Assembly: GCA_964016885.1 (NCBI GenBank) | Contig: OZ024740.1 | Coordinates: 216,752,001-216,816,000, forward strand | Length of the DNA stretch: 64,000 bases | DNA from: Eledone cirrhosa | Lineage: Eukaryota | Direction of reading: 5' to 3' | Part shown: positions 12,659 to 63,912 of the stretch, one piece after another | How positions within the stretch are numbered: the stretch's first letter is position 1 | How the letters are laid out: each line of letters begins with the position of its first letter | Notes under the pieces: generated by a model | What the model was told of the DNA's origin: nothing | The model's database searches: none | The model's input: only the letters and a program-made list of their open reading frames with translations | Made by a program: the position numbers and the translations under genes

Positions 12659-12860
12659 TTTATTCTGGGTTGAATCGGAGGTAACCACAGTAAGTAAGGT
12701 ACTCAATACATTGCAGAGTATAAAAGTTTTAATATAGATGAGATTCTACAGGACTAGAACTGTCTCATTCTTTAGAAATCATCAGGAATCTGATTCCTGA
12801 TGATTTCTAAAGAATGAAACAGTTCTAGTCCTGTAGAATCTCATCTATATTAAAACTTTA
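12658..12860. mobile_element. Palindromic Penelope-pLTR/retrozyme-like element, family A, copy 1
   Basis: Near-perfect inverted arms centred on 12791; flanked by (TA)n; tail motif gtactcaatac. Confidence 0.75.
12792..12840 (+). ncRNA. Type-I hammerhead ribozyme, family A
   Basis: GATTC-CTGATGA-tTTCtaaaGAAt-GAA-ACAG-ttctagtc-CTGT-A^GAATC; all three stems pair; GUA cleavage triplet. Confidence 0.8.
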
Positions 12861-34427: not shown

Positions 34428-34776
34428 TCATCATTTCATCATCATCATTTCATTTTACGTCCGCTTTTTCCCTGCTTGCAAGGGTGAGACGGGAACTGGT
34501 TCTGGCTTGATTTCTACAGCTGGATGCCCTTCCTAACACCAACCTCATTTACAGTGAGTGCTGGGTGCTTTTTTGCCGTGGCACCTCCACGACCACTTTG
34601 CAGTGGAATGATAGGGACCCTAGTCCCTATCACCTCATTTCTACAGCTGAGTAAACTGGAGCAATGTGAAATAAAGTGTCTTGCTCAAGGAAACAACACA
34701 TCACCCGGTCTGAGAATTGAACTCACAACCTTTCGATTGCAAGTCCAATGCTCTAACCACTAAGCCATGTGCCTCC
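34428..34776 (-). mobile_element. SINE family S2, full length
   Basis: Reverse complement of 23002-23338, with an intact ccttgagcaagacactttatttc segment. Confidence 0.9.
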
Positions 34777-35194: not shown

Positions 35195-35504
35195 TAACCA
35201 AAGAGTGCTTAAAAATACATTGTTTTATTAGCTGACAGTGTTTCATCCATACCCCATGGCAGGAATCATCAGAGCCTATAAACAAGAGTATATCAATAGG
35301 TGCATGCTCCATCAAGCTGCGTCACCAGAACAAGGTTAAAAGACCCCCTTGCTGCTCCTTTAACCTTGTTCTGGTGACGCAGCTTGATGGAGCATGCACC
35401 TATTGATATACTCTTGTTTATAGGCTCTGATGATTCCTGCCATGGAGTATGGATGAAACACTGTTAGCTAATAAAACAATGTATTTCTAACCACTCTTTG
35501 GTTA
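35195..35504. mobile_element. Palindromic element, family E (~145-bp arms)
   Basis: Arms 35195-35340 / 35358-35504 with a ~17-nt loop; a hammerhead in each arm; flanked by (TA)n. Confidence 0.78.
35230..35276 (-). ncRNA. Type-I hammerhead ribozyme, family E
   Basis: GGCT-CTGATGA-tTCC..GGAt-GAA-AC-act-GT-C^AGCT; plus-strand twin at 35423-35469 has GUU. Confidence 0.72.
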
Positions 35505-41107: not shown

Positions 41108-41229
41108 AGACTGAGTTCAAATCCCACCGAGGTTAACTTTGCCTTTCATCCTTACGGGGTCGATAAAATAAAGTACCAGTAATATACTGGGTAATTGCTG
41201 GCCTTGTGCCAAATGCAGAAACAATTATT
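41108..41229 (+). mobile_element. SINE S1, 5'-truncated
   Basis: Box B through tail. Confidence 0.85.
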
Positions 41230-41430: not shown

Positions 41431-41492
<62 letters not shown>

Positions 41493-41498
41493 ATAACA

Positions 41499-41611
41499 AG
41501 TATTCCGATGATTTGATCAGAGGCAAACACTGTATTTAAGGTCGAGTGACGCAACTTCGAGTGATAAGCAGCCTTTATACTCACCTGATCAATGAAACAA
41601 TTGTTAATACT
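41499..41611 (+). ncRNA. Type-I hammerhead-like ribozyme, family G (CCGAUGA core, large stem II insert)
   Basis: AGTATT-CCGATGA-t-TTGATCAG-(64 nt)-CTGATCAA-t-GAA-AC-aatt-GT-T^AATACT. Confidence 0.7.
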
Positions 41612-42152
41612 AGAAATAAAACCCTTTTTGTACAGCCGACCATGTTATTCCTCAATCTTTCACTACTATATATATATATATATAGTAATAATAATAAATT
41701 TGAAGACTAAATATATATATATATGTATATATTGGGTCAAAAGCATGACAACCTCTCCTGAGTACTTGATGGAACGTGAGACCCTACATAAGTATGACAC
41801 AGGTCCCTGGCCTGCCTGGGAGATCAGTGGCTCCACTTCAGTACTGACTTGGTCTATGTAGACCCATCCAACCCTTGTTAACAAGGAAAGTGGATGTTAA
41901 AATGATGAATATATATATTTAAATTGGTTATTTTTCAATCTATTGAATCTTACCTCCTGGCTTTACCTTGGATTTAATTTACCTGCATAATAAATGACAA
42001 TAACAACATACTTCCCAACATCTTCATTTATAAATTTTTTTATTTTTATATATATATACAGAAAGAGGGGTAGAGATATGTATGTATATATACAGAGAGA
42101 GGGGTAGAGATATGTATGTATATATACAGAGAGAGGGAGAGAGATATGTATA

Positions 42153-62440: not shown

Positions 62441-62672
62441 ATGTATATATATGTATATATAAATATATATGTATGTATATATATATATGTATGTGTATAT
62501 ATTATATCATCATCATCATCATCATCGTTTAACGTCCATGTTCCACCCATGCAAGCGTGGAACACGGACGCTAAACCTGATGATGATGATGATGATGATG
62601 ATATATATATATAAATTCATATGTATATATATAAATTACACAATTATCAAAGTTATGTTCAAATCATTTAAT

Positions 62673-62719
62673 TGCTGACAATCGTTTCTTCCAAACATTC
62701 GTTTGGAGTCATCGGAGCA
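62673..62719 (-). ncRNA. Type-I hammerhead-like ribozyme, family I (CCGAUGA core)
   Basis: TGCT-CCGATGA-c-TCCAAAC-gaat-GTTTGGA-a-GAA-AC-gatt-GT-C^AGCA. Confidence 0.72.
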
Positions 62720-62825
62720 TTAGCAATGTGTGTACATATAATTAACCTCCTATTCAACTGAACAATCATATAGATACAGTTGTGAACAACAGTTTCGTAT
62801 TTACAGTGTGGAATGGATGCAATAT

Positions 62826-63747: not shown

Positions 63748-63912
63748 CAGTAAGTAAGGTACTGAATACATTGCAGGGTATGAATATTTAATGTAGAAAT
63801 GGCTTCTACAGGACTAGAACTGTTTTATTCGGAAGAAATCATCAGGAAGCACTGATGATTTCTCCTGAATGAAACAGCTCTAGTCCTGTAGAAGCCATTT
63901 CTATATTAAATA
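63741..63912. mobile_element. Palindromic family A element
   Basis: Inverted arms meet at ~63851; minus hammerhead 63801-63850 (GAAA to AAAA) and plus core 63852-63896. Confidence 0.75.

Follow-up and report, generated by a model that had tools for sequence, protein, structure and literature searches.

A stem II arm with conserved pairing on a predicted hammerhead ribozyme in the end repeat of a Penelope-like retrotransposon assigned to the Hydra clade

The hammerhead motif at 41499–41611 of the window (the whole 64,000-nt stretch analysed here) is, judged by its sequence relatives, a 5′-truncated end repeat (pLTR), slightly decayed, from a Penelope-like retrotransposon of the Hydra clade, lying within a (TA)n run. 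The extension on its stem II, predicted to be a 64-nt loop, is not a loop: it contains an irregular hairpin of 49 nt, and ten subfamilies preserve the pairing of this hairpin, with compensatory changes. C at position 4 is an inherited subfamily state, the family has two 3′ ends, and its 5′ ends pile up near stem I. We give a probability of about 0.5 to the reading that the stem II hairpin serves as a handle for protein binding on a predicted ribozyme that is weak and probably dependent on a dimer.

In the window sequence, stems I and II, the palindromic stem III, the core, and the 64-nt insert of the original prediction were each found in place, and C at position 4 was read directly in the core CCGAUGA (Table 1). 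The three stems surround C3, G5, A6, G8, A9, G12, A13, A14, A15.1–U16.1, and H17, as in a type I hammerhead; C4 stands where this type has U4, and the G10.1–C11.1 pair is absent, with U·U in its place, an opposition that the original prediction had not noted. A strict descriptor (stem I of at least 6 bp and stem II of at least 8 bp) gave no match in 100 versions of the window re-generated with a first-order Markov model, and a relaxed descriptor gave 0.24 matches per re-generated window. No hammerhead model of Rfam matched at the motif, either at the gathering score or at E values up to 10, and the folding energy was unremarkable (z = −0.44 for the region and −0.98 for the stem II domain). The insert had been described as relatively CpG-rich, which holds marginally: it has three CpGs in 64 nt, a count reached by 5.8% of the 64-mers of the window.

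Table 1 Features of the motif and its flanks in the window.
Feature	Position	Strand	Basis or remark
(TA)n target run, left flank	41443–41490	.	24 copies of TA
11-nt inverted piece of the far ("tail") end of the family	41491–41501	-	Reverse complement found 81 times in selected loci; matches tail ends
Stem I 5′ strand, AGTATT	41499–41504	+	Direct reading; 41499 is the putative transcription start (+1) of the parent element
Core CCGAUGA (DNA CCGATGA), C at position 4	41505–41511	+	Direct reading, close copies
U·U opposition at 10.1/11.1	41512 faces 41593	+	Direct reading
Basal stem II 5′ strand, TTGATCAG	41513–41520	+	C–G to U–A change in subfamily C
64 nt between the stem II strands	41521–41584	+	Direct reading
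A-rich bulge, largely unpaired, sequence variable	41521–41531	+	58-copy alignment, folds
Conserved 49-nt hairpin domain	41532–41580	+	Covariation, RNAalifold, subfamily comparison
Domain content: GU/AC, 9-position helix, then 5×5 internal loop	41536–41544 with 41569–41577 (helix)
Domain tip: 3-bp CRC/GYG stem, 8-nt loop	41550–41552 with 41561–41563 (stem)
Basal stem II 3′ strand, CTGATCAA	41585–41592	+	Direct reading
GAAA; palindrome AACAATTGTT	41594–41597; 41596–41605	+	Direct reading
GAAA core, palindromic stem III (AACAAUUGUU), and GUU cleavage triplet	41594–41605	+	Predicted cut after 41605
Stem I 3′ strand, AATACT	41606–41611	+	Direct reading
AATAAA, putative poly(A) signal	41615–41620	+	Fixed place after the cut site across subfamilies
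Rest of the pLTR to the near end (site 1, ~+167), (TA)n beyond	41621–41669	+	Identity to copy L002

A DNA search of the genome yielded 2521 candidates, and the best other copies among the 40 scored were 93–97% identical. Exact long-gap patterns hit 725 places for subfamilies A–C and 1642 for D/E, a pattern for the 5′ part of subfamily G hit 246, and subfamily F was found with a covariance model on selected loci. The arm-bearing lineage comprises ten subfamilies and thousands of copies; young subfamilies lie ~2% from their own majority, and the D/E endonucleases are 64–69% identical to those of the A–C group. DNA reads confirm the repeat family. Longer copies run upstream through a UTR of ~600–1100 nt into an ORF, and in L002, a copy 97% identical to that of the window, the endonuclease ends 695 nt upstream. 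In related genomic copies, the ORF carries RWK, DKT, MGS, YRDD, WFNP, CxCx5C, a YIG-like motif, CxxC, and CxH, so that RWK, DKT, the RT core, and a C-terminal endonuclease lie in one ORF. The copy L067 has CNCHLPDKC, CRLC, and CRH, with at most one cysteine ahead of the YIG-like motif and therefore no CCHH cysteine pair. Its long-arm ORF (L067:1501–3228, minus strand) has two N/K/R/Q-rich insertions around WFNP that are missing from most homologues. Insertions lie in (TA)n, with partial inverted or tandem copies that include the tail. Since the ORF features and the (TA)n target match the definition of the Hydra clade in extracts of PMC8557442, the family was assigned to this clade; Neptune or Nematis identity was dropped against the clade definitions. 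Pfam gave no RT or GIY-YIG match for the ORF (one homologue reached RVT_1 at E = 0.0044, below the cut-off), and PDB gave no useful match for it. The closest named homologues were from Argonauta, which makes an octopod host probable, and a quick endonuclease tree from which published Hydra sequences were left out did not resolve most inner branches.

Copies of the family end at either of two fixed 3′ positions, +167 and +328 counted from stem I and 161 nt apart, and in 11 of 12 inverted pairs the two kinds of end occur together. At the window locus, 41499–41669 is 96.5% identical to L002, and the last 3 nt of the inverted tail piece overlap stem I as microhomology. No piece of the ORF was found within the 64-kb window, nor a tandem array at the locus. 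A non-LTR retrozyme, made of short head-to-tail units without an ORF, was ruled out because there is no tandem array and copies are ORF-linked or inverted. At three positions (41566, 41570, and 41578) the window copy has a letter other than that of most reads of the family; the change at 41570 breaks a C–G pair, and that at 41578 hits an otherwise invariant G. With one pair and one invariant base broken, this copy is decaying. It is ordinary decayed repeat DNA, which the original prediction had not recognised as a copy of a retrotransposon end repeat; it has lost promoter and ORF and is most likely inert. Read ends of one RAD-seq run pile up at 41599–41602, most likely at a restriction site; a SINE-like repeat that recurs in many loci lies 300 nt left of the motif (41115–41215); and a tRNA-like match at 34710–34767 on the minus strand (Rfam, 34.8 bits) is probably the head of a SINE.

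We aligned 58 copies chosen across subfamilies, in which the distal 49 nt of the arm align gap-free. The 14-pair hairpin was paired in 89.9% of cells in the 58 rows, compared with 28–45% in slid controls, and 62 cells had changed on both sides, a number that none of 500 shuffles reached. Two of five pairing measures failed against shuffles (double-change pairs, matched by 132/500; further pair types, by 465/500). RNAalifold, unprompted, recovered eight of the same pairs. Among the ten subfamily majorities, 5 of the 14 pairs change on both sides against a null mean of 1.8 (P = 0.0016, which is optimistic because the structure was derived from the same sequences; the subfamilies are also related), and non-standard pair types number 6 against 9.6 (P = 0.006). 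The pair 41–80 is U·U in 25 of the 58 rows, and the pair 45–76 is unpaired in 16. The insert thus behaves as a structured module, as had been proposed, in the form of a long irregular hairpin and not of a plain loop. The small TCGAG/CTTCGA hairpin proposed inside it exists in letters (41542–41546 and 41555–41560) and not as a conserved fold, with 77.9% of its cells paired and its double-change cells matched by 63 of 500 shuffles. A K-turn or SECIS element was considered for the 5×5 loop and rejected: compared by eye with the consensus, subfamilies A and B fit, and E and F do not.

In seven representatives, the domain is always 49 nt long and has a mean identity of 0.74, next to 0.70 for the 50 nt past the cut site; the UTR upstream, at 0.59, is barely above the 0.56 of shuffled sequence. 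These values bear on the reading that the arm is an old insertion inherited by descent, or a downstream promoter element acting at the DNA level, with incidental pairing. The restriction of the arm to one lineage and the weak folding z-scores are in keeping with it, and in Drosophila, according to extracts of PMC2377424, Penelope is driven by an internal promoter that lacks a TATA box and includes a downstream element. However, the compensatory changes exceed the null, the arm has a fixed length and an identity far above the saturated upstream UTR, and its offset from the putative start (+34 in A versus ~+41 in D/E) is unlike that of a fixed-spacing element. We regard this origin as very unlikely.

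The unpaired letters that are invariant in the arm form GUA...UAG motifs, which would fit sequence-specific recognition. The same GTA and TAG at the arm ends could be taken as the invariant GT...AG of a 47-nt retained intron, and partial texts of PMC4209133 and PMC2377424 place the Penelope intron next to its hammerhead; but such an intron would be very short, donor conservation stops at GTA, and the spliced-form pattern of subfamily A has no match in the genome, making splicing highly improbable. A larger intron from the bulge AG/GT was dropped, as the donor is missing in A2, C, D, E, and F. Because ten subfamilies keep the pairing, the arm is likely a protein-binding handle rather than filler, and by analogy with the protein-assisted anole ribozyme this is the simplest reading. 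Other Hydra elements and an abundant short-arm family, whose stem II region spans 21 nt and whose pattern matches 2531 places, do without the arm, which is therefore not a general requirement.

Comparison with paralogs had been set beforehand as the test that could overturn C4 and the importance of the loop. The insert is kept in related copies. When any letter was allowed at position 4, the 91 close copies showed C in 84, T in five, A in one, and G in one. Private damage of the window copy was thereby excluded as the source of C4, which is the norm of its family. Of 88 distinct chromosome-1 copies in groups A–C, 55 have C4 and 30 have U4, the latter mostly in subfamily B and accompanied by G7; the 70 D/E copies divide into 47 C4 and 23 U4. 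Since C4 is common in close copies and equally so in the short-arm family (90 of the first 100 of 2531 matches), it is inherited and does not depend on the arm. T occurs at position 4 in 9 of 41 A-type copies, compared with C-to-T changes in 1–5 of 41 at four other CpGs, and given this excess some U4 copies were probably inherited. Positions 4 and 7 are U/G in B, C/A in young E (L074, L193, and L208–L237 for B and E), and C/U and U/U elsewhere, in few lineages. U·G and C·A would form similar wobble shapes, hinting that positions 4 and 7 may be in contact.

A9 matters for hammerhead catalysis. In subfamily G, position 9 is U in 96 of the first 100 of 246 matches, the arm is kept, and a G10.1–C11.1 pair is present (L085, L089, L206, and L366–L380). 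Since this subfamily keeps the arm despite A9U, the arm appears to be under selection that does not track catalytic fitness, and G is a natural test case for a non-catalytic role. U·U at 10.1/11.1 is common in Hydra hammerheads, and both U4C and U10.1·U11.1 are known natural variants with reduced activity in extracts of PMC3088659.

Peripheral contacts have been proposed to compensate core variants such as U4C (PMC3088659, in extracts), and an A-rich bulge lies ~10 bp from the core in all subfamilies; the arm might accordingly dock on stem I or the 3′ flank as a tertiary-contact element and rescue catalysis by the C4 core. Yet C4 is just as frequent where the arm is absent, the U4 subfamilies B and D retain the arm, as does G with A9U, no covarying partner on stem I was found, and no copy begins at the cut site (see below). 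We consider docking of this kind quite unlikely.

The window holds further hammerheads. One of the short-arm family, also with C4, lies at 62670–62722 on the minus strand; this family has stem I, stem III, and a GUC site as in D/E, and in two loci an endonuclease merely 33% identical ~1.1 kb upstream. A U4 family with a 12-nt stem II region, a longer stem III, and a GUA site occurs at 12797 (plus), 33179 (minus), and 38217 (minus), with a degenerate copy near 63845 (minus). A third family forms an inverted pair (35230–35272, minus; 35427–35469, plus) typical of Penelope-like ends.

We located the 5′ ends of 72 copies, selected with a pattern that lies beyond the cut site on its downstream side. 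Seventeen begin at most 10 nt upstream of C3, compared with 35 that begin somewhere in the 123 nt after it (P = 1e-7); the cut site itself is the start of no copy, and two start within 2 nt of it. Of 88 A–C copies whose core is intact, 29 begin 3–8 nt before C3 and four at 9–15, whereas 5 of 70 D/E copies begin at 3–8 and nine at 9–16 (Fisher P = 0.0006). TATAWAW stands 30–33 nt ahead of an initiator-like A in 17 of 30 representatives, in 15 of these 17 as a site unique within 500 nt; the strict TATA–initiator spacing was not found in the other 13, namely all of B, C, and F and most of E. The initiator-like A lies at −6 in subfamily A and at ~−13 in D and G. TATA spacing and the 5′-end pile-up together suggest that the RNA starts at stem I, though a stop of reverse transcription at the edge of stem I would explain the pile-up equally well. 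Subfamily E (L208–L237) has a tandem duplication of ~19 nt that separates its TATA-like box from its initiator-like site. The (TA)n run to the left of the window copy spans the spot 31 nt upstream of the putative start, where one may speculate that it replaces the lost TATA box.

AATAAA or ATTAAA occurs 9–10 nt past the cut site in all long-arm subfamilies, at 10 in A–E and G and at 9 in F, with ATTAAA in E (for example, 63/70 in A1 and 29/34 in E). In metagenome motifs, the hexamer lies within 30 nt in only 17 of 57. The order TATA, start, hairpin, AATAAA, and the fixed place of the hexamer recall the 5′ hairpin of a retroviral R region, and both template 3′ ends lie beyond the hexamer, which must be read through. 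The arm might thus be a transcription or 3′-processing signal that controls read-through, for instance by blocking use of the poly(A) signal in the upstream repeat. On the other hand, the short-arm family has the hexamer (31/33) without the arm, and the hexamer lies outside the hairpin. Such a signal is an unlikely function for the arm.

Stem III is unfavourable as a monomer hairpin (+2.4 kcal/mol) and stable as a duplex (−8.2 kcal/mol), and its palindrome ACAATTGT is invariant in 58/58 rows. A dimer-capable palindromic stem III inside the pLTR, with an endonuclease upstream in a related copy, is the arrangement of Penelope-like minimal hammerheads. Their palindromic stem III and dimer rule are known, and they cleave poorly even as dimers (extracts of PMC4209133); dependence on a dimer is a known rule and nothing new here. 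Because none of the 72 copies starts at the cut site and subfamily G has spread with A9U, catalysis looks weak or dispensable in this lineage. For the handle reading, the following course is proposed. A TATA/initiator promoter in the upstream repeat would initiate RNA at stem I, and an attenuated ribozyme (C4, U·U at 10.1/11.1, GUU site, and 2-bp stem III) would leave most of it uncut. The RT-endonuclease of the element, or a host protein, would bind the arm, the choice of binder being pure conjecture. Reverse transcription would begin on uncut RNA at two sites downstream of the cut site and reach the RNA 5′ end, giving copies like that of the window. With both ends of the template placed beyond the cut site, new copies would derive from uncut RNA. 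In anole Poseidon, hammerhead mutants still insert, the main template is uncut RNA, and cleavage requires the element protein, according to parts of PMC11167929. The same source has the RNA needed for insertion start at +20 of the ORF, so that most of the hammerhead is dispensable, which counts against a handle. A wider version, in which the hammerhead has turned into an RNP scaffold whose arm binds the telomerase-related RT, with the core relaxing (C4, A9U), the arm kept, and the pLTR resembling a retroviral LTR in its TATA box, start, 5′ hairpin, and poly(A) signal, is tentative and appears doubtful.

Why Penelope-like elements retain hammerheads is called unclear in the available portion of PMC8557442. 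Within a single genome, this lineage provides a natural series, with long and short arms, C4 and U4, A9 and U9, and young subfamilies, on which cleavage, dimer, and binding assays could separate catalytic from structural roles. Rfam and standard descriptors overlook thousands of such motifs.

Earlier work has described hammerheads in Penelope-like repeats, dependence on a dimer, the U4C variant, and loops enlarged to ~30 nt. A covarying 49-nt domain across a lineage with C4, A9U, and an LTR-like layout was not found in the literature searched; Lunse et al. (Penelope hammerhead variants) and the supplementary figures of PMC4209133 may hold such cases, and the octopus repeat paper PMC13282606 does not mention ribozymes, according to a search of its terms. 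The arm and C4 are absent from 26 published Hydra rows and have no credible match in 78 metagenome Hydra loci. In these loci, 42 had a match, and 48 of 50 matches had U4 and a stem II region of 10–30 nt; the other two look like chance (a minus-strand control gave five), and one of these, L269 (C4, 69-nt stem II region, 3-bp stem I), received no score from covariance model R1.

The closest likeness is to Hydra-clade hammerheads, including Hydra-1_Obim, which in extracts of PMC8557442 (Craig et al. 2021) share RWK, DKT, the CxCx5C linker, the C-terminal endonuclease, and (TA)n targets. They also share the type I motif near the 3′ end, the extra U after A9, the U before GAAA, the palindromic stem III, and partial inverted copies. 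In contrast, all 26 rows of File S2 (PMC8557442) have CUGA and a loop 2 of 3–10 nt, whereas here a 64-nt extension with a covarying domain is present, C4 occurs in several subfamilies, and A9U in one. The tail is 161 nt instead of the usual 30–40 nt, and the unit of 3.7 kb (L384) exceeds the "generally under 3 kb" given for the clade in the same extracts. Minimal hammerheads of metazoan PLEs, as described in parts of PMC4209133 (Cervera and de la Pena 2014), are alike in a helix II of 7–8 bp and a short helix I, in the base left unpaired after A9, in a palindromic helix III with a dimer predicted, and in low activity; the present motif differs in the missing G10.1–C11.1, C4, and the long structured extension, and neither C4 nor a long loop II is described in those parts. 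Plant PLE-X hammerheads, likewise Penelope-like, have an enlarged loop 2 (~29 and 35 nt) flagged as deviating in File S2 (PMC8557442), which is shorter, belongs to an unrelated clade, goes with U4, and has no covariation in that table. Anolis Poseidon shares two reverse-transcription start sites past the hammerhead that define the tail, AT-rich targets, and no ends at the cut site (Frangieh et al. 2024, PMC11167929, in part), while belonging to another clade with a 30–40-nt tail, a hammerhead overlapping the ORF start, and no long arm. The U4C viroid variant likewise has C4, with lower activity in vitro and viability in vivo in excerpts of PMC3088659; there it is a sequence variant, whereas here C4 is a fixed state in thousands of genomic copies.
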